Shown here one piece after another: positions 6,950-63,628 of a stretch of 64,000 nucleotides of DNA. Below the pieces are notes generated by a model. That model had not been told where the DNA came from. It was given only the letters and a program-made list of their open reading frames with translations, and did no database searches. The stretch is from Candidatus Bathyarchaeota archaeon (GTDB lineage Archaea; Thermoproteota; Bathyarchaeia; Bathyarchaeales; Bathycorpusculaceae): contig CAWEPZ010000011.1 in NCBI GenBank assembly GCA_963811105.1, positions 640,001 to 704,000 of the forward strand, given 5' to 3'. A program made the translations under genes and the position numbers. Numbering within the stretch: position 1 is the first letter of the stretch; each line of letters begins with the position of its first letter.

Positions 6950-9544
6950 TTACTTCTTCCGATAAAGTATTAGTCCTACTAATGCGACTGCAATAATAAC
7001 TGCAATTATTCCGCCGAGTATTGTCATTGTGTAATCAGGTATGATTATTTTCTGTTGTTGTCCTGTATTAGTTGATGTTGGTGCTGGAACAACAGTGATG
7101 GCAGTTGAGGCTCCTGAACTTCCATATGAGTCATCTCCTGCAAACGTTGAGATGATTTGGTAGGTACCTGTTGCTGGTGGTGTCCATTTAAGTGCAAAAG
7201 TGCCGTAGTAAGCGTTTGTAGTTGTAATGCCAATGTTTGTTGGGTTACCGTTATCGTCAATAGCAGTTAGTGTCACGGGTACTCCAGTCATAGTAATGTT
7301 GTTCCATATTCCGTCGATAGGATATTGCATGTGCAGGTATTCCATTTGTGTAGTCATGGATTCTTTAGATACGCATGGCGTGCCTGGTTGCCCGGGAGAT
7401 TGATCTAAAACTGTGCCAGTTAATACTGCGCTTTGCCCTAGTGATAGTTCTATTTTTGGTCCATCAATTGTTGTTGCACTTTGGCCTTTACCGAAAACGT
7501 ATTCGCACCCATCATATGCGTTGGATATTGCGATGTATCCGTCAGCTATAGCACCTTGGAATACTCTAGAGCCATCACCTCCCCCGGCTTGGGTAGCGGT
7601 TATGTTCCATATTCCTTCGCCATTGGTTGCATTAATGCAATGGAACTTCCAACCTCTTTTTAACGGTTGATCAGGCGAGTGTTCGGCGTTGAATGTATAG
7701 ATTTTACCGTCAGCAACGCAAGCTACTGCATGCCAAGATCCGACAGTTGTGCCATTTGAACCTGTATATGGCGTTTCGTATGGCAAGGTTCCAGACTCAA
7801 ATTTCCAAACTATTTTTCCGTTGTTCCAGTCAAGGGCGCAAATGCAATCATACTGGCTTGAAATTATATAGCCACCGTATGAGGTTGTACCGTATGTTCC
7901 GAAGGTTCCCCAAGGCCAACTGGACAATTCGCCTTTCCATAGAAATTTCCCTGAAGTTAGATCCCAACAATACCAATATCCGTCGTTAAAGCGTGTCGCA
8001 TATTTTCCATGATCTGCTAATGCAATTCCCGCACTGAATTGACCTGTATTGACACCGGATGAAATATTCCACAGCAACTGTCCTGTTATCAAGCTGGCAG
8101 CCATTAATCGTGTTTCAGTAGCGACTTGTGTGGCTGGATTAATTACACTGGCACTGGAAACGGCTATGCCTGTTTCAAAATCAGCACAGTTTCCTAAATT
8201 GCTGAATGGCCAAGATATGTTGCCAACTATTCTAGTGCCCGCAGTTGTAGTTAGGCTATCAAATGTCCCTTTTGTTGTCCAGTTAATCAATCTGTAGTTA
8301 GGATTAGCTGTGGTGCCGATATTCTGAACGCTTAGAACGTATGGATTATTGTAGAAAACTCCTGTTGTCAATGGATCGATTGAGTAGTTTCCTACTATCG
8401 CTCCATTCCATGGTCGATACTTTATCAGTCTTCCATTGCCTATATAGCCCAAATACGCCGTTGCTGTAAATGGCTGTGCGTTTGCGTCACTTTCACCCGC
8501 ATTACCACCCGGGTCATACATTATGAATGTGGGTGGTTGAGTAATGTTTGTCAGTTCAAAGTAGACTTCACCAGTGCGTATGTCATAACATTGCCAAACC
8601 GGCTGAGCCACTCCATTGAAAGTTTTCTGCACGATCTGGTAAGCTCTCCCATCATAGATAATAGTTGGATGCCCATAAATCACCGTGGTTGACTCGCCAA
8701 TGCTTTGTTGTCCCATTGATCCGCCTATGAGGCCGCCTATGGCAAACTGTCGCTTCCAAACTATGTGTGCAGTGTTTGGCGCTAATACGTAAGCGGCGTA
8801 ATAATTGTTCATTGTTCCCCCATTATAGACATTGTATTTGTTTGTATTTGCTGGCCAATTGGAGCCTCCGCCTACAACGCCTGTTGCAGGCCAGTTCCCC
8901 AGAATGGACCACCATTCTCTATTATGTGGGGCTACAGGTCTGGTCCAGTAATCAGTGGGCAATGATGATGTAGGCCAAGATGCTGCTTGCTCAGCGCTTA
9001 CCACTAGGGCGTAAGGTCCATCTGAACTTGGTTCATAGTACACTGAAGAGGTGAACTTTGTGCCTGAAGTATTCGTCACGATATATCCATTATAATATTG
9101 TCCTGCTGGGTAGTACATTCCTAGAAAATCAGACTTAATCGTCCAATTGCCAACTTGATCAGCTGTGTATTCAAACCATGCTGTTCCATCTCCAAGGTAC
9201 GAATCCAAAGGACCGATAACATCTTTGGTTCCATCAGGCTTAGTGATTGTAACGGTGAAGGCTTGGGTAAACATCCGCTGTGCATGAATTGGTGGTTGCA
9301 TCCATATGTTGACTAGAAATGGCTGTCCTAGCCCTACTGGGCGCGGTCTAAAGCTAAGGTGAGTGATTGTACTAATTGTTGCATCGACCGTAACGCCGTT
9401 TGGTAATGGTCCACTAGCTGGTTGTTGGGTGGCAAGTTGTGCTTTAGCTGGAATAATTATGTCATTTGTCATCATGAGGATTGGTGAGATCATAAGAAAA
9501 ATTGCTAGTGTTACTGCTAATTTTGACAGTTTAAAAGAGTTCAA
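6950..9544 (-). CDS. Large PQQ-like beta-propeller surface protein (paralog 1)
   Basis: Signal peptide, 'LPTDYWTRP','D..TG...W' blades,'EHSP.QP..RGW','FGKGQSATT','VLDQSPGQ', C-terminal TM. Confidence 0.88.
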   Translation of the reverse strand: MNSFKLSKLAVTLAIFLMISPILMMTNDIIIPAKAQLATQQPASGPLPNGVTVDATISTITHLSFRPRPVGLGQPFLVNIWMQPPIHAQRMFTQAFTVTITKPDGTKDVIGPLDSYLGDGTAWFEYTADQVGNWTIKSDFLGMYYPAGQYYNGYIVTNTSGTKFTSSVYYEPSSDGPYALVVSAEQAASWPTSSLPTDYWTRPVAPHNREWWSILGNWPATGVVGGGSNWPANTNKYNVYNGGTMNNYYAAYVLAPNTAHIVWKRQFAIGGLIGGSMGQQSIGESTTVIYGHPTIIYDGRAYQIVQKTFNGVAQPVWQCYDIRTGEVYFELTNITQPPTFIMYDPGGNAGESDANAQPFTATAYLGYIGNGRLIKYRPWNGAIVGNYSIDPLTTGVFYNNPYVLSVQNIGTTANPNYRLINWTTKGTFDSLTTTAGTRIVGNISWPFSNLGNCADFETGIAVSSASVINPATQVATETRLMAASLITGQLLWNISSGVNTGQFSAGIALADHGKYATRFNDGYWYCWDLTSGKFLWKGELSSWPWGTFGTYGTTSYGGYIISSQYDCICALDWNNGKIVWKFESGTLPYETPYTGSNGTTVGSWHAVACVADGKIYTFNAEHSPDQPLKRGWKFHCINATNGEGIWNITATQAGGGDGSRVFQGAIADGYIAISNAYDGCEYVFGKGQSATTIDGPKIELSLGQSAVLTGTVLDQSPGQPGTPCVSKESMTTQMEYLHMQYPIDGIWNNITMTGVPVTLTAIDDNGNPTNIGITTTNAYYGTFALKWTPPATGTYQIISTFAGDDSYGSSGASTAITVVPAPTSTNTGQQQKIIIPDYTMTILGGIIAVIIAVALVGLILYRKK

Positions 9545-10354: not shown

Positions 10355-10516
10355 TTACCATCCTGAAGTTGCGTCATCACCGGTTTGCTCCAGAGCTTTC
10401 TTTTCCTCATCGCTGACATCAAGAGGCAAATTAACTTGGTTGTGACCTTCTTCAATTATCTCCCGTTTCTTTTTCCGCTGTCTTATAGTAATTTGACCCT
10501 TCTTTTTCTCTTCCAA
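10355..10516 (-). CDS. 53-aa hydrophilic small protein
   Basis: TTG start with strong SD GGAGGTGA; MEEKKKGQITIRQRKKKREIIEEGHNQVNLPLDVSDEEKKALEQTGDDATSGW*. Confidence 0.6.
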   Translation of the reverse strand: MEEKKKGQITIRQRKKKREIIEEGHNQVNLPLDVSDEEKKALEQTGDDATSGW

Positions 10517-10662
10517 AAAGTTTCACCTCCCCTAAATATCGTTGAAAAAAGCTGTAGACCTCAGGAATAACCAGCTTTTTTTTAATTTTTACCTTTACTG
10601 ACCATTCAGCTTGTCAGATATGTTTGAATTTCTTCATCCTAAGAAATATCTGAAATTTGGCT

Positions 10663-10681
10663 GTATTAACTTGCGTGACTG
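10663..10681 (-). promoter_or_regulatory. CAGTCACG box + TATA
   Basis: CAGTCACG-CAAG-TTAATAC upstream of 10355-10516. Confidence 0.6.
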
Positions 10682-10839
10682 TGCAGTAACAACAACAAAG
10701 CCAAAAATGTTAAATCAATGAATAACCGAAATATTTTTGTCAGTTTAAGCATTTCCAAATGGCTGTCATCTTTTCTTTACAGAAGTCTTTGTAACCTGCA
10801 CTTTTAGAACTGCAATTCTTAAACGACTTGAAGAAAGCA

Positions 10840-11251
10840 AGGGGCATGGATTCTCAATTCTAAACTCCAGGTTAGCCAACGAATTGAAGACGGATTTGAA
10901 CACAAAAAGTCTCTGCGTTCCATTGCAAAGATTCTGGGCAAAACCCTTAATTCTGTACGGAAGAAAGCATCTCGCTTAGGCTTAGTTGATGATGATGGGA
11001 GTGAAAAAACAACGCCATCATCATCTACCCTTGATAAGTTAGTTTTGCCCGATGAGTTGCCTTCAATTGAGGAAAAACTCAAGACCTTAGTTGGAGCCTT
11101 GCAGCGCCTTGAATCGGGCGAATTGGATAAAATTGATGTTTTGCGTTTACGCTGCATCATCCAGGCCGTAATAGTGTACCAGGAGCTGACAGCGGAATAT
11201 ATCGACTATCGCGGGTTAGAATCTGAGAGGTTAGAGTGGAGAGAGAAGTAA
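10840..11251 (+). pseudogene. Provirus HTH/putative terminase small subunit, degraded 5' end
   Basis: KSLRSIAKILGKTLNSVRKKASRLGL...LPSIEEKLKTL...YIDYRGLE; immediately upstream of the terminase fragment. Confidence 0.6.
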
Positions 11252-11257
11252 AGGATC

Positions 11258-11727
11258 TTGCACAAAAATCCTCAGACGTTGCGTCCAAATCTGCATCTTA
11301 ACGAGCGAGCTAAAACTCGAATGGACGTAAGTTTATTGAAAATGTTAGCGCCAGTAAGGTGGTTGCTTTATAAGGTGATGTTAAAGAGTTTTTTGAGCAA
11401 GTTTTCGGTTTTACGCCTTATAAACATAAGGCTTGAATTGGCAGATTTATTTGAGAAGAACCAGTTCACGGCGGTGCGGTGGTGTAAGCAGAGTGGCAAG
11501 AGTTATTCGGTTTCTGCTTTGCTGCTCAAATATGCTTGGAAATATGCGGATAGCTATATTGTGATTGTGGGTCCCAGCTGGCGCCAAACAAAACTAAACA
11601 TTAGGCGTATGGGAGGTTCTGCAGAAAACTCCCAGTGTAACAAGGCCTATATGGGCAAAGGGCAAGAATCTTTTTGCCCGATGGGAGCATGATTGAGGCG
11701 TTTCCAAACAACCTTGATACAATTAGT
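11258..11727 (+). pseudogene. Terminase large subunit N-terminal fragment
   Basis: Walker A-like 'AVRWCKQSGKS', 'IVIVGPSWRQT', later 'IEAFPNN.DTI'; frameshifted and truncated. Confidence 0.75.
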
Positions 11728-11762
11728 TCCGTTGCACTCTTTTCGTGAGAAAAAGCTCGTGA

Positions 11763-12122
11763 CTATTTTTGGTTTTCAAGTTTTTCGGGAGATCTCAATT
11801 GATTTCGTATGATGATGAAAAGTCCAAAAAAGAGCACGCCAGCTATGATTCCTGAAGTGATGCCCATGATGTACAACGCCTCCCACGCTGGCATAGAAGT
11901 GCTGAGGTACTTGAACGAACCGATAAGTATGAACAGGGAAGCTGAACCAAGAAATGAAATTCCAAGAGCCATCAAAACACTGCCAACTATGCTTATGATT
12001 ATGAGTTTTTTGAGTCGTTTCTTAACAGCTGTTTCCGCTTCATTCATATATGCCTTGAGTATGGCTTTTATCTCACTTAGAATTGCTCCAATTATTTCCC
12101 TTAATGAAATCTTTTCTGACAT
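11763..12122 (-). CDS. Two-TM membrane protein, YqjE/holin-X-like
   Basis: Amphipathic N-helix then two TM segments, 'MPAWEALYIMG'. Confidence 0.65.
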   Translation of the reverse strand: MSEKISLREIIGAILSEIKAILKAYMNEAETAVKKRLKKLIIISIVGSVLMALGISFLGSASLFILIGSFKYLSTSMPAWEALYIMGITSGIIAGVLFFGLFIIIRNQLRSPEKLENQK

Positions 12123-12240
12123 CTAATAATTACGCCTCTTCCAAAAACAAATCTACCGAACCCTAAAAATCATGTTATTCACGCACGATAGCTGAGTAAA
12201 AATGTTTCAAGATTCTCATATTTAGTTTAGCTTAGTATCT

Positions 12241-12258
12241 ATTTTAAGATTGTGACTG
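12241..12258 (-). promoter_or_regulatory. CAGTCACA box + TATA
   Basis: CAGTCACA-AT-CTTAAAAT upstream of 11763-12122. Confidence 0.65.
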
Positions 12259-12326
12259 CATGACTGCAGCAAAGTAAATTTAAAAGCCTCTTTAGTCACC
12301 CCTTACTTGGTTGGAGTTCCTGATTT

Positions 12327-12652
12327 TTGGGTGCAATATACCAAGTTATTAATTTTATTACCTCTGGAAGCATCGGCGGTATTCCACCATTAGTTTTGAT
12401 GATTACTCCATTTGTTATCGGACTTATCATAGGCTACCTAATCCACAAAATGCTAAAGATCGCGATTTTAGCTGCGATTATATTGGTCGTGGTTGCTTAC
12501 TTTGGGTTCTTCGGTTTAAGTCTTGGCGCCTTGAAAAGCGTTGCTGACACATATGGCTCCTTGCAATTCAATATGGAGTACTTCTCATGGGCATACTACC
12601 ACTTGGTTTAGGGCTAGTCATTGGTTTCGTAATTGGCTTCGTACTATCGTAA
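12327..12652 (+). CDS. Small membrane protein (FUN14-like), 1-nt frameshift near 12558
   Basis: 'PFVIGLIIGYLIHKMLKIA'; continues in another frame LAIQYGVLLMGILPLGLGLVIGFVIGFVLS*. Confidence 0.65.
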
Positions 12653-13019
12653 GCAAACACTTCTCTCTGTAGGAAAACTAACCAAAATCGGCGCAAAAGA
12701 GGTACGAAATTATGCCATGTGTGTATTATCTGCGGGAACCCAACAAAAAACGAAGTTCTACAAGAAAGAAAAAAAACCAAAAAACAACCAACTCTTGCAA
12801 ACTCACTCAACCAGCCAAATACTCATCATATACCATTCTATCCCCAAGCTCGAAATAGATTCTTCAATTTAAAGAAAACCTATACAAGACAACAAAAAAT
12901 GATTACATGGCCAAAACAATAACAATAAGCAGCCAATAATTGAAAAAAAATATGTTCAAGTGGTAATGTTTCCTAGCGAAAAAGGATGTTTTCGTTTACC
13001 CCAACTGCGTTAAGGGTTA

Positions 13020-13217
13020 CTACTTCTTTTGTCTTACTGCGACCTTGGCTTTCATTTCAAAGATAGTATCTTCGCCGATTTTTCCAATACCAAAGTTCCA
13101 TTCTAATACATCAACTTCCATGTCTTTGAAGTGTGAAACCCAGGTTTTCTGGAATTCGTCCCATTTTTCGCCTATCTTCTGTATCTGTTCTTTGACGTCT
13201 ATTTGTTGTTCTGGCAT
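13020..13217 (-). CDS. 65-aa hypothetical protein
   Basis: ATG with SD GGAGGTG; protein-like composition. Confidence 0.7.
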   Translation of the reverse strand: MPEQQIDVKEQIQKIGEKWDEFQKTWVSHFKDMEVDVLEWNFGIGKIGEDTIFEMKAKVAVRQKK

Positions 13218-13285
13218 AATTTGTTACACCTCCTAAAATGCGCTAAAAAATTGCGCAGGCCCAAGTTTATAGCTAGTCATTGGTT

Positions 13286-13305
13286 GGTTTAAATGTGTGT
13301 GACTG
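13286..13305 (-). promoter_or_regulatory. CAGTCACA box + TATA
   Basis: CAGTCACA-CACA-TTTAAACC upstream of 13020-13217. Confidence 0.65.
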
Positions 13306-13419
13306 TGAAGCTGCAACTACAGATGTAAGTCATTATCGTCCAACAAGATTGACAAAACCTCAATTAAGGAAAAAAAGAAGTCTAAATAAAGAAGCAAACA
13401 AGCTGTTACTGTTTATTGA

Positions 13420-13438
13420 CAGTCACACATCTTAAAAT
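13420..13438 (+). promoter_or_regulatory. CAGTCACA box + TATA
   Basis: CAGTCACA-CAT-CTTAAAAT upstream of 13475. Confidence 0.65.
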
Positions 13439-13474
13439 AGACTGGCAAGTTAAAGATAACTAAGGTTTTTCAAA

Positions 13475-13633
13475 ATGGGCGCACTTGATTTTCTTTTCGT
13501 CGTAGCTGCGATTCTTGTCTTGCTGTGGCTTCTGGGCTTTTTCATCTTCAACCTTGGCACTATCATATGGGTTCTGCTTGTCATCGCCATCATCATAATA
13601 CTTGCTCGACTGCTTACAGGACGCAGAATATAA
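13475..13633 (+). CDS. lmo0937/DUF5670-family small membrane protein (52 aa)
   Basis: MGALDFLFVVAAILVLLWLLGFFIFNLGTIIWVLLVIAIIIILARLLTGRRI*; below ORF-track cutoff. Confidence 0.85.
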   Translation: MGALDFLFVVAAILVLLWLLGFFIFNLGTIIWVLLVIAIIIILARLLTGRRI

Positions 13634-13832
13634 CAGCAACCAAAAACATGGTAGCAGCGCCAAAAGCTGCTTCCCAACTTTTTTGTAAACAAAGAAATCG
13701 CACTTGTATAGGTAGGTTACGTCATTCAACGTTTTGATAATTATCTATCAGTATGCGCTATCCTAAGTTTTTCTCTATTGCCATTTTTGGATTTTTGGAA
13801 GCAATTGCTTATCGCTTGTTGGTGTCTGATAG

Positions 13833-13852
13833 CAGTCACAGATGTTTAATAA
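13833..13852 (+). promoter_or_regulatory. CAGTCACA box + TATA
   Basis: CAGTCACA-GATG-TTTAATAA upstream of csbD. Confidence 0.65.
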
Positions 13853-13887
13853 AAGCGCAAGACAGTATTATTTTATAGTGAATTTTT

Positions 13888-14052
13888 ATGAGCAAAGACG
13901 AAACTGAAGGTAAAATTAAACAGGGAAAAGGCAAAGTCCGTGAAGGCTTAGGCAAGATTACTGGCGACGATAGTGAACAGATTAAGGGCAAAGTGGAACA
14001 AGTCAAAGGAAAAATCCAGGAAGAAGTAGGCAAAGCAAAAAGAAAAGCCTAA
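13888..14052 (+). CDS. csbD: CsbD family general stress protein (54 aa)
   Basis: MSKDETEGKIKQGKGKVREGLGKITGDDSEQIKGKVEQVKGKIQEEVGKAKRKA*. Confidence 0.9.
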   Translation: MSKDETEGKIKQGKGKVREGLGKITGDDSEQIKGKVEQVKGKIQEEVGKAKRKA

Positions 14053-14279
14053 TAAAATTTAAAACCAACTATTCAACGCTTCAATAATCAGCCAAAATAA
14101 GATTTTCAAGAAATCGGAAAAAAACACTGTCAATTGTTAATGCAGATAGCTTACCCCCTTTTGGGGTTTTTTTTCTCAAGTTTTGGGGAGCATGTCAAGC
14201 AAGCGAAAACTTGAAGTTGCACTCTTTATTTTGCGTTCCCCCACAAAAGAACTAAACGGGATTTGGACTTAAAGTCTGC

Positions 14280-14546
14280 TTAGTTTTCTAATTCTTGGTT
14301 AGCAAAGAATAGAGTCTCGAAATGTAGTTCTACAAATTCGCTTCTGGATCTTTTTTGTTTTGAGGCTTCTCTATATATTTTCTCTAATGTGCGGTTAGAA
14401 AGGCTATGCTTACGGGGTGTTTGCGCACTGTAGCCTGAGTCTCCAAGTATTTTCCGCTTCTTAATAATTAACAATTGATTGTTAAAGGGAATTTGGATAA
14501 GGTGTTTGTGGGAGTTCTCACTAAAAAAGAGGTTGGTATTTGACAT
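14280..14546 (-). CDS. Putative ribbon-helix-helix DNA-binding protein
   Basis: C-terminal 'RKHSLSNRTLEKIYREASKQKRSRSEFVELHF' fits the RHH pattern. Confidence 0.55.
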   Translation of the reverse strand: MSNTNLFFSENSHKHLIQIPFNNQLLIIKKRKILGDSGYSAQTPRKHSLSNRTLEKIYREASKQKRSRSEFVELHFETLFFANQELEN

Positions 14547-14680
14547 TCACGACCTTTGTCACGGAAGCATGGGGACAACCTGAAGAAAATTACTTAGTTA
14601 AAAAAAATAAAAAAATTGAGCTGAAAATTCTTAGTATAGTCTGCGTCAAGCAGAACTAACGGTTTAATGTATGTTTATGT

Positions 14681-14890
14681 TTAGTGGTATTCGTGCGACT
14701 TCTGGTCGGAAACGGGTTCGTGTCCTTGGTTTTTGCTTCTTGCCTTAATAATTGTTGCTTGAGCTTTGTTTTCTGCCTTGTTCAACTTGCCTTTGTACCG
14801 CTCTCTTTCGCTGATAGCTGTTTTGTCTTCCTTTTCAGGATTTTCGCTTTTTGCCTGATCCTCTCTATCCTTCTTGTCTTGGTTACTCAT
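14681..14890 (-). CDS. 69-aa highly charged small protein
   Basis: ATG ORF with upstream TTTATTAA box; hydrophilin-like composition. Confidence 0.6.
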   Translation of the reverse strand: MSNQDKKDREDQAKSENPEKEDKTAISERERYKGKLNKAENKAQATIIKARSKNQGHEPVSDQKSHEYH

Positions 14891-15034
14891 AGAATCCCTA
14901 AAAACTTGCTTACGCCGGGTTTAATAAACACATGTTTTTGCTTAGAGTTATTTGCTAAACCAAGTTTTAAATAAAGCAAACCGATTGAAGACTTGAAGGA
15001 ACCAGCATCGTCTTTTCGCAAAATGGCTATAAGC

Positions 15035-15534
15035 TATAGACTTCGCAAATAAAAAAATAGCCATTTATCACCCAGCTAAAAGCAACAATACACGCACCAT
15101 CAGAGTAAGCGAAGATCGGATTAGCATGCTCCAGCAGTTACCAAGAAAGGGAAAACTTGTGTTTTCCTACAGAGAATATCAATATGCTGAAAAAGGATTC
15201 CTAAGAATGCGTCAACGAGCAATAGCAAAGACACGCAACCAAGAGCTTCGCAAAATACACTTTTACACCTGCCGATATTGGCGAGCAACCGATGAAAGAC
15301 ACAAAAAAGGCAACCCAGAACAGCGTTCAATACCTGCTAGGCCACACGTCGCTAAGCTACGTGGGATTATATGCTAGGCTAATCGTCGATTACTTTGGTA
15401 ACGATCAGGAATTTGACGTGCAAGAAGCCGACGACAACGACAAACCGAGAATTAGAATGCTACTGCAAAGGGGTTATGATCCAGTGCTAAATATCAACGA
15501 TGGAGGCGTCCACTATTTCAGAAAAGCTAAATAA
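15035..15534 (+). pseudogene. Tyrosine integrase C-terminal remnant
   Basis: 'HPAKSNNTR','KIHFYTCRYWRAT','VQYLLGHTSL..VGLY','YFRKAK'; frameshifted, N-terminus missing. Confidence 0.8.
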
Positions 15535-15613
15535 ATACTTGTCATACTCTCAATGCGGTCGCAGCATCGCCGCGAAAATAGTAGGACCGTCATCTAGCAA
15601 AAAGCATGGACAT

Positions 15614-15692
15614 GGGGCCGTCGTCTAGCATGGTTCAGGATACATGCCTGGGGCGTATGCGATCCTGGGTTCAAATCCCAGCGGCCTCACCA
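15614..15692 (+). tRNA. tRNA-Pro(GGG)
   Basis: GGGGCCG/CGGCCTC acceptor, CATGC-CTGGGGC-GTATG, CTGGG-TTCAAAT-CCCAG, encoded CCA. Confidence 0.93.
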
Positions 15693-15742
15693 CATTTCCA
15701 GTGGCCCTATTGGCGATGATTTTATTCAATTTTTTAGTCATT

Positions 15743-16140
15743 TTATTTTTGCTTCCTGAATAGTTTTACTTCTCCAAAGTCGCACACGTACTCAAATCCT
15801 GCTTCCACAAGTTTTTGGGCGTCTTCTACGGTTTTGGCGGTGGCTGAATGGAATTCGTCGTTTTTGAAGGTGATGAGCTGAGTGTACAGTAGGGTGTTTT
15901 GGATGTTTCTGTGTCCGAGTATTTTCATGACGTGTAAGATGTCTTTAGTTTTGGCGTATTCGGTTGTGGCTTTCCAGTGTCTTAATGTGTGGAAGTGGAT
16001 TTTTTTAAGCGGTCGTTTTTGAGATTAGAGGCGATTCGGCTTCTTTGTAGTCGGAAGGCTCTGGCGAAGTGTCTCTCACTGCACTTGTAGGGTTGCTCGT
16101 GGTCTCTTGGTAGGCTGTTTAGCATTGCTATGAGCAGAAG
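15743..16140 (-). pseudogene. Tyrosine integrase C-terminal remnant
   Basis: 'IHFHTLRHWKATTEYAKTKDILHVMKILGHRNIQNTLLY...VEAGFEYVCDF'; frameshift near 16000, N-terminus absent. Confidence 0.85.
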
Positions 16141-16261
16141 ATTTCCCCATCCCCAACCTACTTTAATACATAATTTAGGGACAAAGCGGCGTTATGCTTA
16201 ATTGCTTAATCTAAAACCTTTTAAGCAGTTCATTACAACGAGATAAATAAAGGGACAAGAA

Positions 16262-17650: not shown

Positions 17651-18172
17651 TTGACAATGTCAAGAACAAAAAACCGAAGAATTGTAAAAATACTTATCGC
17701 TGTCGTAATAATTGGTGCGGTAGCTTCATCAATTCTTGTCGCATATAATTGGCAATCAATCTTTCCATCGAATTATCCAATAGCTCTCAGTAACATCATC
17801 TTTCCAATGGATAAGCAGATAGAGTCGGTATCCATAGGCATTAAAACATACCAAGCAAACGAACCGATTATAACAAATTTGATAACTATTAATACTACAG
17901 GCTTAGAGCCGTTGGCAACACCTCAAAACATTCCACAAGGTGGTAAGTACGCAACATCAGATTACATAACGCCAACAAAATATTCCATAGGCCAAACAAT
18001 TGTAATTGATAGAATATCTAACATTAGCCAGATACATGAACGACTGACAATAATGATTACCCCTAAAATGCTACAATATACCGCAGGCTATTACGTTAAC
18101 ATGCAATCAACACACACAGGGTACGCGATTGCTCCACCCATAAATGCAACATGGGTTTCAATTTCAGAGTGA
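17651..18172 (+). CDS. Membrane-anchored exported hypothetical protein
   Basis: Basic N-terminus + TM, Thr/Ile/Asn-rich ectodomain. Confidence 0.7.
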   Translation: MTMSRTKNRRIVKILIAVVIIGAVASSILVAYNWQSIFPSNYPIALSNIIFPMDKQIESVSIGIKTYQANEPIITNLITINTTGLEPLATPQNIPQGGKYATSDYITPTKYSIGQTIVIDRISNISQIHERLTIMITPKMLQYTAGYYVNMQSTHTGYAIAPPINATWVSISE

Positions 18173-19162: not shown

Positions 19163-19267
19163 GTTTCAGCATTTTTTGTTGTGGTAGTGTGGTGTAAGTC
19201 ACAATGTCTTATTTATCTGGGTCTTGAACATTACGAGTGACTTACTCCTTAAAGAGGTGAATAGTTA

Positions 19268-19570
19268 ATGAAGAAAGAAATGGACCCGTTGATGGCAGCT
19301 TCTAATGTTTACAAGTTACTGAATGAGAATGATAAGGTGCGTGTTCTTGAGGTAGTCTTTAAGCCTGGGGACGTTGCGAAAATGCATCATCATCCTGACC
19401 ACGTGGTTTATGCTTTGAATGGTGGAAAGCTGAGTTTTCTTTCTGGAGGCAAGACCCAAGAAATGGAAATAAAGGAAGGTTCAGTAATTTTCCTCGAAGC
19501 ACAAGACCATGAAGCGAAAAACGTTGGAAATACAACCGTAGACCTTATTGTGATGGAACTAAAGAAGTAA
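19268..19570 (+). CDS. Cupin domain protein
   Basis: 'ENDKVRVLEV.FKPGD...MHHHPDHVVY...HEAKNVG'. Confidence 0.88.
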   Translation: MKKEMDPLMAASNVYKLLNENDKVRVLEVVFKPGDVAKMHHHPDHVVYALNGGKLSFLSGGKTQEMEIKEGSVIFLEAQDHEAKNVGNTTVDLIVMELKK

Positions 19571-25286: not shown

Positions 25287-25760
25287 TCAAATTATCTTGC
25301 TATATTCTTTAACAGCGTTCATTGCAATCATCGTAGTTGTTCTTTTTATGAACCGCTCAGTTAACAGGTTTTTTAGAAAAGCATTAAGACAAGCGTTATC
25401 TCGAAACTTTGCTAAGACTACCGTATCATATTCTCCCGTTATTTCATACACAGATAGGACGTTGGTTTCCTTGGCAATTTCGTTTTCGACTTCAATTATG
25501 TGTCCGCCTTCAACTTGAATCATTATAATAGCTGTTAAAGCATAACCCATCTTTGCTGAATCAATAATAGGGGCATAGCCACGAATAACACCTTCACCTT
25601 CTAAACTATTGAGACGGTTATGCAGAATATTTGGGGTTAATCCAACTCTGTGGGCTAATTTGCGCAAGCTTACGCGTGAGTCATCTTCCAATGCGCGGAT
25701 GATTTGCAGGTCAACAGAGCCCAATTCCTTCTTTGGGCTTTTTGATAGTTTTAAGCCCAC
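25287..25760 (-). CDS. Lrp/AsnC family transcriptional regulator
   Basis: HTH 'DSRVSLRKLAHRVG','EGVIRGY','ITGEYD'. Confidence 0.92.
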   Translation of the reverse strand: MGLKLSKSPKKELGSVDLQIIRALEDDSRVSLRKLAHRVGLTPNILHNRLNSLEGEGVIRGYAPIIDSAKMGYALTAIIMIQVEGGHIIEVENEIAKETNVLSVYEITGEYDTVVLAKFRDNACLNAFLKNLLTERFIKRTTTMIAMNAVKEYSKII

Positions 25761-26027: not shown

Positions 26028-26460
26028 GTGGTTGGTAATTTGTTAAACGTTTGCAGCAGACACAGGTTTCGCGTGGAAATTAATGGAATCGCCCCAGTGG
26101 GGATCAGGGAAGTTGAGGTGTTTGCGTTAACATTGATGCCCAGGATTTCAAGGAAGGAAAAAGATATTTCGGCGATTTCTACAACAGACCCAGGTGTAGT
26201 TCATTATGGTTCCGCTTATTTTACGAAACGCTATGGCAGGTAATTGCAGATGACATGGATTTGTGGACGTGGATAAAACAAGTAATTGACGGAGAAGACT
26301 ATCAAAAGAAATGCGTCAATTATTGTCATGGATAGAAAAGGCAATGATAAATTTAGGTTCAATTTAACTGGAGCTTGGCCAAGCATTTGGCTCTTGGGAA
26401 AACTGGAAAGTCACTCTGGTTCCCTGTTATTTAAGGAACTGGTTCTTAGTATGAGAACCC
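26028..26460 (+). pseudogene. Phage-tail tube (T4 gp19/eCIS Afp1-5-like) gene, frameshifted
   Basis: 'RFRVEINGI','DMDLWTWIK','RNASIIVMDRKG...RFNLTGAWPSIW','ELVL' across shifted frames. Confidence 0.75.
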
Positions 26461-26596
26461 AAATGTTCCTTAACATTTCATTTTTCCAACACACTAAAAA
26501 GGAAGAATTGAAGCCTGAATTTTTTGCTCTTCAAAGCCATTTCACATGTTAACCTTATTACTGCCAAAATAATTCAGTTAAGGTGAGGCAAAACAA

Positions 26597-30248: not shown

Positions 30249-31491
30249 ATGACTTCGGCCATGTTATGGAAAAGGAATATACTTCCAAACGGTTTAAGAG
30301 TATTATCTTTCCCTCGGCAATCTGCAAATACCACCCAGCTGTCCATCGCTGTTGAGTTTGGTTCAAATCAAGAGCCGGAAGAAAACGCTGGAGTCGCCCA
30401 TTTTCTTGAACATATGCTTGCTGGAGGTTCCACAAAACGAATCCAGTTATCGCGAAGCGTTGAAGATTCTGGCGGAAATCTAAATTTTTACACAGATCAT
30501 GAGCACATGATGAGTACCATTGATATTCTGCCGGATAAATTAAGTGAAGCTGCGCTTCGTTCTTTCAGAGTTGCTGTTTAACAACGATTTTGAGGAAGAG
30601 AAATTTGGAAGAGAACAAAAGATAATTCTCAATGAACTCGCAGAAGCCTCAGACGACCCAACTGAAAAGACCGAAGAGTTATTGATGAAAAGTCTGTTTA
30701 AAAATCACCCGGTAAAGCGTCCAGTCGGAGGTTTTCCGAAAACCGTTAGAAAATTAACTTTAAAGCAACTGATTAAGGCGCATAGAACAAATTATATTCC
30801 CCAAAACATGATATTAATTTTAGCAGGCAATTTATCCGAAAAAAATAGTGGCATTGTTCTTAAAAACTTCGAGGACAAAACCTCCGAGAAATTGCGCTCA
30901 AAAAAGATCCACCCTTTGGAAATAGGTAAGCCTGAACCGTTGGTTGTTAAGAAAAAGTCGGGCATAGCTCAATCCTACTTTAGCATAGGGGCAAGAACGG
31001 TTTGTTCAGGTCACAAAGATGCGCCTACGTTAGATTTGATAAGTGCTATACTTAGCGGAGGAACTAGTTCACGATTATTCATAGAACTGCGAGAAAAGAA
31101 CGCCCTTACATATGATGTCAATTCAGACAATAACAAAGGGTTAGATTTCGGGTTTTTCAATATTGATTGTGCAGTTAAAGATAGAAATTTAGACAAAGCT
31201 AATGATTTGATCGGAAAAGAGTTAGCCAAGTTGAAGACTCAAAAGCCACCAACTAAGGAAATTGAAAGAACCAAAAATTTGATTACTGCCGAAATCCTCA
31301 GGGGAATGGATAATCCACATGAAACATCAGAAATTCTTGCCTATATGGAAATACAATTTAGAAATGAAAGATCGCTGCTAGACTATATTGACAAAATTAA
31401 GGCGGTCTCAAGTGAGAACATAACAGAAGCTGCCAATACTTACTTTCAAGAAGATTGTCTTTCAACCGTTATCCTCAAACCTAAGGAGTAA
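30249..31491 (+). CDS. M16 family zinc peptidase (1-nt frameshift near 30555)
   Basis: HFLEH motif in the first ORF; 'SSRLFIELREK..LTY' in the second. Confidence 0.88.
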
Positions 31492-33242: not shown

Positions 33243-33965
33243 TCATTGACTAGATCTCAAATCTATGACTGTTGTTCCTGCGAACTTGTCAAAGTACCTC
33301 ATAAAAGTGTTGTCTTTAATTCGCCACATTCCAATAAGCAAGTCAAAAGGAAGCAACGGCAATATTTTCCCAAAGTTTCTAATCGCGGCATGATCATAGC
33401 TCATTTTCTTTCCATCTGTTCTAACGACTTTAAGTCCCGTAATTCGTTTGCCTAAACTTTGACCATTAAATCCTTCCAGTAGAGTCGAGTAAAGCCAAAG
33501 TAGCCCTATGGTTACGAAGAGCACTACACTAATTCCTCCGTTGAGAAAAGTCGCCGAGGATAAAGAAAGGGCTTGAGGCACAATAACTATTGTCACGGTA
33601 ATTGCTAAAATTATTCCAAAATCGACTAGGAAAGCAGCTGCCCTCTTTTTGAAGGATGAAAGCGGAAGGTGACTTTGTTTTCTTTGCACATCAGCAACTT
33701 CTGCCCAGCCTTCAATATCGTGAATAACTCTTATGGCGCTCTCTCCAGCCCTGCTAAGTTTGTATTTGCCACTTGGCGTTTGCTCTATGAACGCTTCTAG
33801 CGATCGAAGGTGAAAACTCAACTTTCCAGTGTCAACTTTTAATAAGTTTAATAGGTCAGTGAAAGATGACTCTCCCTTTTCGCTAAGGTTAATTAGTATT
33901 TCTCTTCGCAAGGGATGCGAAAGTATCGAAAGTACTTTCGAAATGTTTTCTTGATCTATAGCCAT
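33243..33965 (-). CDS. ArsR-like HTH fused to RDD membrane domain
   Basis: 'LSHPLRREIL..GKLSFHL' + 'KRAAAFLVD','GQSLGKRITGLKVV'. Confidence 0.88.
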   Translation of the reverse strand: MAIDQENISKVLSILSHPLRREILINLSEKGESSFTDLLNLLKVDTGKLSFHLRSLEAFIEQTPSGKYKLSRAGESAIRVIHDIEGWAEVADVQRKQSHLPLSSFKKRAAAFLVDFGIILAITVTIVIVPQALSLSSATFLNGGISVVLFVTIGLLWLYSTLLEGFNGQSLGKRITGLKVVRTDGKKMSYDHAAIRNFGKILPLLPFDLLIGMWRIKDNTFMRYFDKFAGTTVIDLRSSQ

Positions 33966-42659: not shown

Positions 42660-42941
42660 TTAATCTTCTTCCGAGTCTTCTTTAGCTAACTCAACCGAAA
42701 TTGAGTCATCATGGCTAACTGCGTTTTTGCTTGTTTGTTTTTTGCTTGGCGGTTCCTGTTCTCTGCCTTCCATGAAGCCTTCTTCTGCAGCTGTGATTTC
42801 ATCTTCATCCAGCATTGTTTCTCGCTCTTCAGCATCATAGACGTCGTCTGTTTGCTCTTCCTTCTCTTGTTTAGTTAGAGGGGGCCCATCATAAAAGTAT
42901 GGAGGCGCTTTCTTCCTTGCTTTTGTTTTACTCATAATCAA
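42660..42941 (-). CDS. Small acidic protein
   Basis: 'DDVYDAEERETMLDEDEITAAEEGFMEG'. Confidence 0.7.
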   Translation of the reverse strand: MIMSKTKARKKAPPYFYDGPPLTKQEKEEQTDDVYDAEERETMLDEDEITAAEEGFMEGREQEPPSKKQTSKNAVSHDDSISVELAKEDSEED

Positions 42942-43000: not shown

Positions 43001-43020
43001 CTTTTATGATTATGTGACTG
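43001..43020 (-). promoter_or_regulatory. CAGTCACA box + TATA-like
   Basis: CAGTCACA-TAAT-CATAAAAG upstream of 42660-42941. Confidence 0.5.
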
Positions 43021-43285
43021 AGCCCTGACAACCACAAACGTTGCTTCGGCCTTTTTCTTCGGAACTCAGATGTCTGCACGAATAATGCAGTTTTGAAATG
43101 AAAAGTAATGTCTTTGTTGAAAAATGGTTTTGTGAATGTATCCAATTGCTTGAAATCAGGCTAAAGCTTTTTATACGCCCAAAGCCCACCCTTTGCATGT
43201 CACATTAACTCATGTATCACCCCAAAGCTCCTGAAGCTTTTAGAGAAATCATGAACAAATTCTGTGGCAGGAGAAAAAATAATAT

Positions 43286-44771: not shown

Positions 44772-47501
44772 TTAGTGTTTCCTGAGGATGAGTAGTGTAG
44801 CAATTGCTAATGCAATTATCATAACGATAACTGCTACTACTATGTAGGTCATCAGATCAGATGTTTTGACTAATCCTTCTGTTGGACTGCTTGTGGGTGT
44901 TGGTGATACTGCATGTTCTGCTACAACCACTGCTGCTGTTTCTGCAGATGAGCTGCCGTATGAGTCGCTGCCTGCGAAGGATGCTGAAATCTTGTAGGTA
45001 CCTGTGGTTGTTGGTGTCCATGTGAAAGAGTATGTTCCGCTTTGGTCGCTTGTGGCTGTTCCAATGTGTACTACATTGTTGTTTGGATCAAGTGCGTCTA
45101 TTGATACTGGGACTCCGTTAACTACTGCATTGTGGTATATTCCGTCGATTGGCATTTGGAAGTGTAGGTAATCCATCCATGTAGCCATTGAAGCTTCGGA
45201 TACTGCTGGCGTGTTTGGTTGAGCTGCTGATTGGTCCATTACTGTACCGGAGATGATTATGGGTGATCCTGCGGTGATTGCTGTTTGTGGAGCTGAAACT
45301 GTTGTTGAGCTTTGTCCTTTGCCCATTACGACCATGGTTCCGTCATAGCTGCTGCTTGCGAATAGGTATCCGCTAGATGCTGGGCCTGCGCCTAAGTTTG
45401 TTCCCATTATCTTCCATAGGAATTGTCCTGTAGTTGCATTGAGAGCAATCATACCCCAGCCTCTTGTTGCGGGCTGAGATGGTGTGTGTTCGCTGTTTTG
45501 TACGTAGGCTACTGCGTCAGAACCAGAACCGAGGATTCTTATGTTTTGAACTGAATAGGTTTGTGAGCTGTTAGATGTGTATGGTGTTTCAAAGGGTACT
45601 GCTGGATCAGCATAGTGCCATACTATAGCGCCAGTGGCATCATTGAGTGCCCAAACGCCTGTGTATCCGACACCGTAGATCATGTCCTGGTATGCTGCTT
45701 CATCATACATCCAGAATTCGCCCCACGGGTAGTCAGGAATAGGAGTCGACCATGCTACTTGACCAGCTTTTGATCCGGTCAAAAATCGGGCTTCAATGTA
45801 TCCGCGTTCCATTTCAGCAATGTATAAGCCATCTCTGCACCAAGCGTTTGTCGGTCTATAAGCATCTTCCATTGAGTTCACTGGTGTTGTTACGTTCCAC
45901 AGATTTTGACCAGTTACCAAGCTTATTGCTTGATAGTTTGATCCGTAGAAACCACCGTAAATGAATCTGCTTTGAATAACGGTGATACCTGTATCTGGGT
46001 CGTATGCACCTAAATTGCCGTATCCTCCTGCTTGATAAAGTGTCCTAAAGCTTGTCGGTATAGTAACAGTTACGTTGCTTACGACTCTGGTGGCGAATGC
46101 CGAGTTTATCTGGGCTGTGGTTGCAGTATTAGATGTTGATGATCCTCCACTTACTGTCCAGTTAACTATGTATCCTGTGTAGGATGATTGGACTGTAATG
46201 CCTGGAGCTGGGGTAGTGCTGTTTGTGTAAAGTTGTTGGAAGCTTAAGATGTAGCCGTCTCGGATGAAGTATGTAGTGAGACCGCTTGGAAGTGTAATGT
46301 TTGTTGATAGTGCGCCAGTGGTTGGATTAATCTTGTAAAGTTTGCTTCCTGATATTGTGTAAAGTTCTGATTGGAATGATGTGTCAGCTGCTTCTCCTGG
46401 TACTGCGCTAAGACTTGGTAGATAGTAGTTAATGTTGGTTGGTGTAACGCCGGTTCCGCCTGAAGCGATTGTTAATATGTCGTAGTAGATTTGTCCAGTT
46501 TGTACGTCGTAGCATTCTGCAAATGATTGTGGTGCTAATCCGTCGATGGATTTGGTGACAGTCTGGTAGGCTCTTCCCATGAAGATCACGCTTGGAGTTC
46601 CGCCGCTGCCTGATAGTGCATAGTTACCTGTTTCTCCTCCAATTATGCCTGCTACTGAAGTTACTCTTTCCCAAAGAATGTGTGGAGTATGTACTGCTGG
46701 AATATAGGGACCATAGTATTCAGCATTCCAACTATTTTGTCCTCCGCTAACTCCTGTCAATGATTCGCCCCATGGATAGTTTCCTGCGATTGCTGCCCAT
46801 TCTCTGTTGTTTGGCTCAATTGGGTGGCTCCAGTAACTGTTCGGCAATGGAGATTGCCATGATATCACTTGTGCTTGCTGTACAGTTACATTCGTAACTG
46901 GTGACATAGCGGGTGCAACGTAGTCTGATGGGTTGAAAATTGCGCTTGCAAATGCGCCTGTACGTGTGGCTGAGTAGTTTCCGTTAGAGTAGTATCCAGC
47001 TGGATAATATTCGCCTAAGAACGAGAATTGGAATTGGTACGTACCAATTGAGGTTGGAATATATTGGAACCAGCTTGTACCGTCTGCAACGTATGATTGA
47101 AGAGTAACTGTATCATTAGTTCCATCCGGCTTGACTATATTGACTTTGTATCCGTTCATGAATTTGCCCTCACCTGATGGGAAGGTAATCCACATGTTAA
47201 CCAAAAGCAATTGACCAACACCGATTGGGTTAGGTGAAGCGCTTAAGAAACATAATGGATAGATTGTGAAATCTGCAGTTTGCCCGGCTGGTATAGTTGT
47301 CGGACCTACGTAGCCATTTTGAGTTGGAGCTCCGCCATGAACGCCTTCGTCTTGTGCTTTGACCGTTAAGCTCAACATTGCCATTGATGATAATAATAAA
47401 GCAATTGCGAGTATTGAGAGTATTTTTGGTTTATTCAACGATATTTTGGTTGTATTCATCGAATTTTTCAGCGAGTATATTGAATTTATTGGGTTTTTCA
47501 A
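44772..47501 (-). CDS. Large PQQ-like beta-propeller surface protein (paralog 2)
   Basis: Same motif series as 6950-9544 (EHTPSQP..RGW, GKGQSSTT, DQS..QP), C-terminal TM. Confidence 0.88.
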   Translation of the reverse strand: MKNPINSIYSLKNSMNTTKISLNKPKILSILAIALLLSSMAMLSLTVKAQDEGVHGGAPTQNGYVGPTTIPAGQTADFTIYPLCFLSASPNPIGVGQLLLVNMWITFPSGEGKFMNGYKVNIVKPDGTNDTVTLQSYVADGTSWFQYIPTSIGTYQFQFSFLGEYYPAGYYSNGNYSATRTGAFASAIFNPSDYVAPAMSPVTNVTVQQAQVISWQSPLPNSYWSHPIEPNNREWAAIAGNYPWGESLTGVSGGQNSWNAEYYGPYIPAVHTPHILWERVTSVAGIIGGETGNYALSGSGGTPSVIFMGRAYQTVTKSIDGLAPQSFAECYDVQTGQIYYDILTIASGGTGVTPTNINYYLPSLSAVPGEAADTSFQSELYTISGSKLYKINPTTGALSTNITLPSGLTTYFIRDGYILSFQQLYTNSTTPAPGITVQSSYTGYIVNWTVSGGSSTSNTATTAQINSAFATRVVSNVTVTIPTSFRTLYQAGGYGNLGAYDPDTGITVIQSRFIYGGFYGSNYQAISLVTGQNLWNVTTPVNSMEDAYRPTNAWCRDGLYIAEMERGYIEARFLTGSKAGQVAWSTPIPDYPWGEFWMYDEAAYQDMIYGVGYTGVWALNDATGAIVWHYADPAVPFETPYTSNSSQTYSVQNIRILGSGSDAVAYVQNSEHTPSQPATRGWGMIALNATTGQFLWKIMGTNLGAGPASSGYLFASSSYDGTMVVMGKGQSSTTVSAPQTAITAGSPIIISGTVMDQSAAQPNTPAVSEASMATWMDYLHFQMPIDGIYHNAVVNGVPVSIDALDPNNNVVHIGTATSDQSGTYSFTWTPTTTGTYKISASFAGSDSYGSSSAETAAVVVAEHAVSPTPTSSPTEGLVKTSDLMTYIVVAVIVMIIALAIATLLILRKH

Positions 47502-55977: not shown

Positions 55978-55986
55978 TTAGCAGCT

Positions 55987-56412
55987 TTACTCTCCGTTGG
56001 CTTTGGAGCTAAGGATTTCTCCGCCAGCTTCTTGGATTTTTTTGGCTGCCGATTTAGAGTATGACGAGACCTTTATGGTTAGAGGTTTCGTTACTTTTCC
56101 TGTGCCTAGAAGTTTAGTATAACCTAATTCAGTCAGATTTATTTTTTGTTTTTCCTGACTGCCACTTTGTGTGATTTCTTCTAGTTTTTTGAGGTTTATT
56201 GTGTTTACTTTATTATGAAGACTCTGAGGTGAGGTAAAGCCATTTTTACCGAAGTAATGAGGTTCATGAGTTACAACCCAACTCCACAGGTGCTTATGCC
56301 TTCCAACTTTCCTGTGTCCTTTGGAGCCACTGTCTCGATGTTGACCTATTCTTCCGTAGCCCACAGTCCTGCTGCCTCTAAATTTTCGTATTTTTCTAAG
56401 TTTATGCGGCAT
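55987..56412 (-). CDS. rpl15: Ribosomal protein uL15
   Basis: RGSRT.GYGRIGQHR, GYTKLLGTG. Confidence 0.97.
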   Translation of the reverse strand: MPHKLRKIRKFRGSRTVGYGRIGQHRDSGSKGHRKVGRHKHLWSWVVTHEPHYFGKNGFTSPQSLHNKVNTINLKKLEEITQSGSQEKQKINLTELGYTKLLGTGKVTKPLTIKVSSYSKSAAKKIQEAGGEILSSKANGE

Positions 56413-56878: not shown

Positions 56879-57127
56879 TTAACTAACGAATTTCATCTTT
56901 CTAATTATAAAAGATATCGCACATAAAGGGTAAGAAAACGCCAGATTCTCTTAAAGCAATTTACATACTAAAATGTTGACTCCAGACCTAATTTCACCTT
57001 AAGGCGGAAGGTCGAAACAAAGAATCACTTTTAACTCACTCTTCTAACAACCATAACATAATAGGAAAAACCTACTTAAACAGAAAAAAGATGTTGATTA
57101 AAAATTAATGGGAACAACGCTTAGCCT

Positions 57128-59328: not shown

Positions 59329-59329
59329 C

Positions 59330-60920: not shown

Positions 60921-60932
60921 AAATTACACCTT

Positions 60933-61316: not shown

Positions 61317-61328
61317 CTACTTTAGCTC

Positions 61329-61493: not shown

Positions 61494-61509
61494 ACATTTA
61501 TCCTCAGTT

Positions 61510-62809: not shown

Positions 62810-62811
62810 AA

Positions 62812-63618: not shown

Positions 63619-63628
63619 TATCTTGCAC

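Follow-up and report, generated by a model that had tools for sequence, protein, structure and literature searches.

A conserved 24-bp palindrome beside TATA-like boxes outlines a candidate general-stress-like regulon in Bathyarchaeota

Two archaeal activators whose sites abut the transcription factor B (TFB) recognition element (BRE) and the TATA box are among the closest described parallels to the promoter element discussed here. For TFB-RF1 (PF1088) of Pyrococcus furiosus, a palindrome, TCTG-N5-CAGA, located just upstream of BRE/TATA and recruitment of TFB at promoters with a weak BRE have been described (PMC5937170). For GvpE, which acts at haloarchaeal gas-vesicle promoters, an upstream activating sequence (UAS) of two 8-nt portions with a 4-nt spacer has been described that abuts the BRE; activation is lost when its distance to the BRE is changed in any way, its proximal portion is indispensable, and at divergent promoters either side has a UAS in its own orientation (PMC2241852). 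Our subject is a 24-bp imperfect palindrome that precedes small genes in a 64-kb stretch of Candidatus Bathyarchaeota DNA (contig CAWEPZ010000011.1, positions 640,001 to 704,000; hereafter the window). Below, we describe this element in the window and in related loci, weigh what may read it, and discuss the genes that it would control.

Within the palindrome TGTnnnTGT-N6-ACAGTCACA, the CAGTCAC(A/G) box forms the half nearer to TATA, which is invariant. A sequence-only reading of the window had reported five such boxes within the interval 10355..14052, each shortly before a TATA-like box. All five are indeed there (10674-10681(-), 12251-12258(-), 13298-13305(-), 13420-13427(+), and 13833-13840(+)); they are intergenic, lie on the same strand as the next small open reading frame (ORF), and have a TATA-like box 3-4 nt further on (TTAATAC, TTAAAAT, TTTAAAC, TTAAAAT, and TTTAATAA, respectively). 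A sixth box with the same layout lies 29 kb from this cluster (43013-43020(-)), ahead of a 91/93-aa ORF, bringing the promoter-proximal boxes of the window to six, each aimed at a small gene. The same reading had also placed a degenerate inverted half upstream at variable spacing, and here it was mis-registered: the true half, TGTnnnTG(T/C), is fixed at -16..-8 from the C of CAGTCAC in five of the six sites (the one at 12258(-) is degenerate), and the apparent variability is this distal half read in shifting registers. The sites are listed below with their scores on a position weight matrix of 37 columns, built from the 36 representative promoters introduced further on.

13404..13439 (+): element and TATA-like box of the lmo0937/DUF5670 gene; left half TGTTACTGT (13404-13412), core ACAGTCACA (13419-13427), TATA-like CTTAAAATA (13431-13439); score 36.5
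13817..13852 (+): element and TATA-like box of csbD; left half TGTTGGTGT (13817-13825), core GCAGTCACA (13832-13840), TATA-like GTTTAATAA (13844-13852); score 35.1
13286..13321 (-): element and TATA-like box, divergent from the element at 13404; left half TGTAGTTGC (13313-13321), core ACAGTCACA (13298-13306), TATA-like ATTTAAACC (13286-13294); score 39.2, the best of the window
12239..12274 (-): element and TATA-like box of the YqjE/holin-X-like gene; degenerate left half CTTTGCTGC (12266-12274), core GCAGTCACA (12251-12259), TATA-like TTAAAATAG (12239-12247); score 22.2, the weakest of the six
10662..10697 (-): element and TATA-like box; left half TGTTGTTGT (10689-10697), core ACAGTCACG (10674-10682), TATA-like GTTAATACA (10662-10670); score 32.7
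43001..43036 (-): element and TATA-like box of the sixth site, beyond the interval first reported; left half TGTGGTTGT (43028-43036), core TCAGTCACA (43013-43021), TATA-like TCATAAAAG (43001-43009); score 29.9
19180..19215 (+): weak candidate for a seventh site; core TAAGTCACA, 72 nt ahead of a cupin gene (19268-19570; Cupin_2 2.1e-6); score 16.1

The six sites score 22-39, above the maximum of 20.8 obtained in 20 shuffles of the window; the weak site before the cupin gene (19196) falls inside the shuffle range and is not significant by itself. The divergent pair 13305(-)/13420(+) consists of two separate oriented elements and not of a single common palindrome. Sheer abundance in the window says little: the bare 7-mer CAGTCAC occurs 11 times, and CAGTCACR seven times (once without a TATA-like box, within a GDSL-lipase ORF at 3777+) against 2.70 expected (standard deviation 1.67), a count of at least seven being reached in 2 of 100 shuffles. 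As this whole-window count is unremarkable, the signal rests on the clustering (five in 3.2 kb) and on context.

Searching the CsbD protein of the window against one genome per species yielded 37 related loci. By record title, 25 are metagenome-assembled genomes of Candidatus Bathyarchaeota, one is an 'uncultured archaeon', one belongs to Methanomassiliicoccales, and ten are bacterial. The nearest to the window is L001 (94% over 0.9 kb), and no locus is identical to it. The window and the 27 archaeal loci (L001-L027) together make up 556,203 nt with 125 occurrences of CAGTCAC, and 420 permutations of the same seven letters were counted in this same sequence. CAGTCAC is followed by a TATA-like tetramer 87 times, and 53 of these cases also have TGTnnnTG in register; the permutations average 47.8 occurrences in total, 5.4 with the tetramer, and 0.13 with the distal half too. 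The best other permutation reaches 34 with the tetramer (the overlapping word GTCACAC) and 1 with the distal half. Among all 7-mers with at least 40 occurrences, CAGTCAC ranks first by the fraction followed by a TATA-like sequence (0.70). The positional enrichment relative to TATA that the sequence-only reading expected is thus clear in 556 kb of related sequence: the layout upstream of TATA, on the promoter's own strand, is found for 87 of the 125 cores (84 under a stricter pattern), and all six window sites and 36 promoter clusters have one layout.

These 36 clusters result from grouping the 84 cores that are followed by a TATA-like tetramer at 60% flank identity. Their distal block consists of T(-16) in 26 clusters, G(-15) in 27, T(-14) in 30, T(-10) in 24, and G(-9) in 27. 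It is separated from the core by 7 unconserved nucleotides, the last of which is A(-1) in 22 clusters; then come CAGTCACA and an A at +9 (25 clusters). The full TGTnnnTG stands in register in 16 of the 36 representatives and at least four of its five positions do so in 26, whereas six shifted registers yield 0-1 of 36 each. Symmetry holds at six of the nine mirror positions; the half next to TATA is invariant, and the distal one is degenerate. From the 8-mer to the start of the TATA-like box the distance is 3 nt in five clusters, 4 nt in 14, 5 nt in nine, and 6 nt in four, while the remaining four have 0 nt (two) or no TATA-like match (two). With 3-6 nt in 32 clusters and a mode of 4, the distance between site and TATA is constrained.

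Conservation upstream of csbD orthologs points the same way, as the sequence-only reading had anticipated. In 20 of the 27 archaeal loci, but in none of the ten bacterial ones, the invariant core precedes the csbD start by ~52-55 nt; the bacterial loci lack the full element as well (0/10) and give no matrix match above 14 bits. Across 21 distinct CsbD promoters only TTGTTgGTG, the core CAGTCACA, A(+9), and TTTAATAAAA are at least 90% conserved; their flanks are divergent and of two or more unrelated types. When elements (core, TATA, and at least four of five distal positions) are counted anywhere in a locus, they occur in 26 of the 27 archaeal loci and 21 of the 22 assemblies, the Methanomassiliicoccales genome being the sole exception. 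Orthologous promoters also contain one-base variants (CAATCACA, CAGTTACA, CAGCCACA, and TAGTCACA) that change only core positions 2, 4, or the first base and keep ACAnTnACA. A chance origin is ruled out by the composition-matched permutations, the ranking among all 7-mers, and this conservation upstream of csbD. What we observe directly is the element with its dyad and fixed register, how it is conserved, and the set of genes behind it.

Seven archaeal csbD genes do not have the core: the Methanomassiliicoccales copy (L019), the copy in L022, a partial match preceded by neither of the two sequence types, and a second class of csbD paralogs with five copies (L018, L023, L024, L025, and L027). 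In the ~100 nt upstream of this second class there is no CAGTCAC element; its members have a common block of their own instead (TTCAGTTTCCTTYGAAG ... GTACCAATTTRTTTATTAG), which suggests that these genomes control some of their csbD copies by another, separate route. A further conserved arrangement, a doubtful variant of the site, was seen at L001 14274(+), L003 13071(+), and L006 14775(+): the core is followed by T instead of A, the distal half is shifted by one base, and there is an TTTTTATTAG box. This arrangement stands a mere ~22 nt ahead of a 92-aa ORF and lies upstream of the gene for a beta-CASP RNase.

What could read such an element? It is very probably a transcription-factor site that defines a regulon and, given a factor site, an activator is the likely kind. 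The site lies directly upstream of, and slightly overlaps, the position of TFB contact, its spacing to TATA is near-fixed, and its conserved half faces TATA; these features make an activator that recruits TFB or the TATA-binding protein (TBP) the most likely candidate. This was the second of the two options offered by the sequence-only reading, and we favor it with reasonable though limited confidence as the best explanation. In this mechanism, one sequence-specific transcription factor, dimeric or a dimer of dimers, would bind the 24-bp palindrome. The element ends 3-5 nt before the TATA-like box, and the bound factor would work with the basal machinery and could recruit TFB/TBP in the manner of TFB-RF1 and GvpE. 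It would thereby co-regulate small stress-type genes in a clade of (soil) Bathyarchaeota. Protein binding, the TATA-like box as promoter, the stress response, and activation are what we infer. Taking the TATA center at ~+15.5 and a start ~26 nt further, transcription would begin near +42. Since the start codons of the csbD, DUF5670, and zinc-finger genes lie at +48 to +58 and others at up to +165, 5' leaders of ~6-15 nt are predicted for these three and longer ones for the rest.

The first option of the sequence-only reading was a non-canonical BRE for an alternative TFB, with CAGTCACA being an extended BRE that a specialized TFB paralog reads, giving a sigma-like regulon with no separate factor. 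The archaeal BRE spans 6-7 bp directly upstream of TATA. Counted from the TATA start, however, the invariant core occupies -12 to -5, and the distal half is conserved at ~-28 to -20; the core overlaps the 7 bp that presumably form the BRE with no more than its last ~3 nt, and the 24-bp dyad reaches ~28 bp upstream of TATA. Moreover, the dyad points to a dimer, whereas TFB reads the BRE as a monomer, and no TFIIB-family protein was met in the scans of the window and four further loci, which is weak as an argument. What speaks for a TFB is that the core stands beside TATA and that A(+9), 3 nt before the TATA start, falls within the 7-nt span at a position that we take to be contacted by TFB. In addition, conservation is far stronger in the proximal half than in the distal one, as expected with a second reader. 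The ACAnAT before TATA is also unlike VRAAA, the Pyrococcus BRE consensus (PMC5937170). With the core beyond the BRE span and the symmetry of the dyad, a TFB paralog alone is insufficient and a dimeric DNA-binding factor accounts for the element; we consider the BRE explanation quite improbable. A broader version, in which a dedicated basal-factor variant (a TFB paralog, alone or with a partner reading the distal half) recognizes the composite CAGTCACA-TATA and switches on a battery of small stress proteins, mostly of bacterial type, that have been acquired and brought under a single archaeal promoter module, is improbable as well, if not quite to that degree. If it were true, an organism that lacks sigma factors would have a sigma-like class of promoters, and with it an archaeal counterpart of the bacterial general stress response. 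Promoters of the sigma-70 type were considered and rejected (11 consensus-like sites against 8.9 expected, in an archaeal host).

Position also bears on the opposite regulatory sign. The same palindrome could be the operator of a repressor that blocks TFB/TBP at the edge of BRE/TATA until stress releases it, following the logic of archaeal Phr, MDR1, or LrpA. Dyad symmetry fits either type of factor, the ~3-nt overlap with the 7 bp upstream of TATA touches the expected TFB site, and TATA-like boxes such as TTAAAATA and TTTAATAA look as good by eye as those of other genes in the window. Archaeal repressor sites, however, commonly lie over TATA or the start, and here the functional-looking sites are all upstream of TATA with the strong half proximal, none of them covering TATA or the predicted start. 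The 38 of 125 cores without a TATA-like tetramer are no more than the total that a word of this composition should give, and the divergent pair at 13305(-)/13420(+) is served by two oriented elements and not by a common one. The near-fixed spacing across unrelated promoters is, furthermore, what was shown to matter for the activator GvpE (PMC2241852). All in all, we regard repression as unlikely, though less so than the other rival readings.

Finally, the element might act in RNA (as a hairpin, small RNA, or thermometer) or be a mobile repeat, a restriction-modification motif, or a replication-origin motif, all of which we deem very improbable. The dyad could pair in RNA, and the window cluster is flanked by a terminase fragment and by ORF 15743-15928, which resembles an integrase C terminus by eye. 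Against this, the distance from core to start codon varies from ~40 to 165 nt while that to the TATA-like box is near-fixed, the flanks of the promoter families are dissimilar (36 clusters from 84 sites), and the sites are strand-specific relative to the downstream gene. A structured leader or small RNA behind the 10681 promoter was likewise rejected: the leader folds no better than its shuffles (z 0.38), and the only Rfam matches in the window at gathering thresholds are tRNAs. This leader (10517-10681 (-)) is unusually long, with 165 nt from the core to the 53-aa ORF and a hairpin flanked by A8/T6, and no related locus covers it.

The genes behind the six elements of the window encode the following proteins.

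13888..14052 (+): CsbD-family protein, 54 aa; Pfam CsbD 2.2e-14, above cut-off; a terminator-like hairpin with a T-run follows the gene at 14153-14167
13475..13633 (+): lmo0937-family membrane protein (DUF5670), 52 aa; Pfam DUF5670 3.8e-7 and NCBIfam lmo0937_fam_TM 3e-9, both above cut-off
11763..12122 (-): YqjE/holin-X-like membrane protein, 119 aa; Pfam Phage_holin_3_6 5.2e-5, 23.7 bits, below the cut-off of 28.4; start codon 136 nt after the core
13020..13217 (-): 65-aa protein of no family; no Pfam or NCBIfam match; homologs behind the element in L004 and L018
10355..10516 (-): probable target, charged small protein of 53 aa; GGAGGTG Shine-Dalgarno-like site; start 165 nt downstream of the core
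42660..42941 (-): acidic low-complexity protein of 91/93 aa, target of the sixth element; no Pfam match

Of the targets named in the sequence-only reading, CsbD and the lmo0937-like protein hold up, both with matches above the cut-offs; the YqjE-like assignment comes down to the weak Phage_holin_3_6 match, although four orthologs of this gene stand behind the element and its promoter type is also present in L003. The gene family of the 65-aa protein occurs in eight loci, in some of which a PRC-barrel gene lies behind the same promoter type. The last two proteins of the list represent real conserved families. The 53-aa protein belongs with 152 protein clusters (E<=1e-3) that are named only 'hypothetical protein' and come from Candidatus Bathyarchaeia/Bathyarchaeota. 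For the 91/93-aa protein there are 409 clusters at the same threshold; the named ones among the matches listed are 'hypothetical protein', mostly from Candidatus Bathyarchaeota/Bathyarchaeia, with one from a record titled Verrucomicrobiae.

Over the window and the loci together, the downstream genes belong to at least 12 unrelated families. Sites with the element precede CsbD (23), DUF5670 (13), C2H2 zinc-finger mini-proteins of 62-83 aa (seven), PRC-barrel proteins (six), YqjE/holin-X-like proteins (four), a small two-helix membrane protein (four), the 65-aa family (three), DUF3185-like proteins (three), a Cys/His-rich family of 76-117 aa (three), a 57-aa Cys-rich family (four, with one-mismatch cores), a 108-aa protein (two), a KatE-type long catalase (one), a response-regulator/PAS/histidine-kinase protein (one), and the window-only 53-aa and 93-aa proteins (one each). 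Some listed sites, such as the one before a nitroreductase gene in L007, have no distal half and probably arose by chance. The catalase is found in L021, where a full element at 7128 (+) precedes a gene (7307-9484; start 179 nt after the core) for a 725-aa protein of the long KatE type whose C-terminal domain is DJ-1/PfpI-like; no other enzyme of known function belongs to the set.

Many unlinked genes from stress-protein families thus carry one promoter signature, most of them in islands near csbD (a consequence of how the loci were fetched). The overlap with bacterial general-stress regulons, which are considered to include CsbD, KatE, PRC-barrel, YqjE, and lmo0937, is striking. The sequence-only reading had counted lmo0937 among the SigB genes, which is only partly backed: the gene is reported to be down-regulated by a sigma-B inhibitor, but had not earlier been called sigma-B dependent (PMC3225968). 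Likewise, its proposal of a general-stress regulon stands as regards a conserved multi-gene set with bacterial-like content, and not as regards variable spacing and a BRE alone as the explanation.

For the regulator itself, Pfam scans covered 20 + 41 proteins of the window, 14 encoded behind the element in the loci, and 77 from L001, L003, L018, and L023. The scattered transcription factors that they returned are a Lrp/AsnC protein (25287-25760), an ArsR-type helix-turn-helix protein with RDD (33243-33965), and PadR and TrmB-CBS proteins in L023; none is consistently linked to the element. No TFIIB-family match came up in the window or in these four loci either, which says little with only 20-64 kb covered per genome. 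One protein deserves separate mention, the 108-aa product of genes behind the element at L001:12085-12411(-) and L018:9300-9626(-), which has no Pfam or NCBIfam match. Foldseek relates its model to winged helices of the ArsR, Fur, and PerR type (E 0.01-0.07), and in Atlas its connection to MarR_2 is weak (42% of one rank-16 cluster at 0.90). The protein may be a DNA-binding member of the regulon that regulates its own gene, to be taken as a lead, and was rejected as the general factor because it is too rare.

Several points weigh against the best explanation. Among the Pfam-scanned proteins, no transcription-factor gene consistently adjoins the element, and the 108-aa protein occurs in just 3 of the 28 sequences searched (11 protein clusters), with an AlphaFold model of modest confidence (predicted local distance difference test 68.5) and a weak fold match as its best Foldseek hit against PDB (E 1.3e-3). 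As the loci were fetched via csbD, the sample over-represents stress islands, and many sites are orthologous copies and not independent events. Promoter function and stress induction are predicted from sequence and gene content. The TATA boxes of the element promoters look ordinary, which fits a repressor equally well. A BRE consensus for the clade did not emerge, 72 TATA-like picks from 319 non-redundant upstream regions giving no flanking signal, and the sequence before TATA in the element promoters, ACAnAT(C/G), differs from VRAAA, which is the Pyrococcus consensus (PMC5937170) and maybe not that of this clade.

A few observations on the surroundings complete the picture. The window is archaeal, has a GC content of 41%, and ends in a ribosomal-protein operon with SecY (54550-63976). 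Mobile-element debris interrupts and flanks the stress cluster (10700-11700 and 14100-16200): ORF 11258-11692 matches a terminase large subunit (PHROGs 4.8e-6) and has short broken ORFs around it. ORF 15743-15928, mentioned above, encodes 61 aa, adjoins tRNA-Pro (15614-15692), and resembles the C terminus of a tyrosine recombinase by eye, with no Pfam or PHROGs match. Synteny with L001 and L003 breaks after csbD. In L001 the stress island also includes a TFS/TFIIS-type zinc-ribbon protein (17776-18126(+); Zn_ribbon_TFIIS 4.4e-18), which could be a stress-linked paralog of the RNA polymerase cleavage factor; its neighbors are a beta-CASP RNase, a DUF4342 zinc-ribbon protein, a cupin, and a glycosyltransferase + DUF5752 pair.

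Elsewhere in the window, a peptidase M16 gene appears to be split into two overlapping ORFs (30249-31491 (+); N-terminal domain 30249-30581, C-terminal inactive domain 30544-31491), which may reflect a frameshift or a sequencing error. An 88-aa ORF (26286-26552 (+)) matches the C-terminal portion of a T4 gp19-like tail-tube protein (Pfam 5.5e-7, just above cut-off; none in PHROGs) and stands as an isolated fragment beside CDGSH and thioredoxin genes. Three paralogous secreted or anchored proteins of ~860-910 aa (6950-9544(-), 44772-47501(-), and 51666-54347(-)) combine a PQQ-like beta-propeller with Big_3_5 domains.

To our knowledge, transcriptional regulons are almost unknown in uncultured archaea, and our literature search found no paper describing a promoter motif or stress regulon of Bathyarchaeota, or this element. 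A factor site that abuts BRE/TATA is a known kind of arrangement; its sequence, the clade, and the general-stress-like content are new. The element links more than a dozen small-protein families of unknown function, including CsbD, lmo0937, and PRC-barrel proteins, whose roles are also unclear in bacteria. It predicts co-expression of its target genes, which can be checked in soil and peat metatranscriptomes, and the 24-bp sequence can be used as bait for the regulator. Should that regulator act by recruiting TFB, or be a TFB variant, it would reveal by what means an archaeon mounts a general-stress-like response in the absence of sigma factors.

How, then, does the element compare with known systems? 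With the sigma-B, RpoS, and EcfG regulons of bacteria it shares genes (CsbD, lmo0937-family, YqjE-type, and PRC-barrel proteins and a KatE-type catalase) and the principle of one short signature before many small genes whose biochemical function is unknown. It differs from them in its archaeal TATA-type promoters, in having a dyad upstream of TATA in place of -35/-10 boxes, and in its absence from the ten bacterial csbD genes. Within the archaea, the operator of Phr from Pyrococcus is said to be ~25 bp long and bipartite with a 5-nt spacer between half-sites, resembling the TGTnnnTGT-N6-ACAnnnACA geometry; Phr reportedly is a repressor that binds across the transcription start and not ahead of TATA, and its site has an unrelated sequence. 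The UAS of GvpE is similar in its near-fixed spacing, its invariant proximal half, and the divergent pair with two oriented elements. Its portions are direct repeats (YGAAAYGA), however, whereas ours are inverted, and it controls just one gene cluster. This haloarchaeal protein has no known relative in this clade, where homology to it was not examined. As to TFB-RF1, of which no homolog was sought, the sequence of the site differs, the dyad of our element is longer (9+6+9 bp), and two known target operons stand against at least 12 gene families, for which binding and activation are predicted. In its position relative to BRE/TATA and in its dyad nature, the Bathyarchaeota element matches the TFB-RF1 site.

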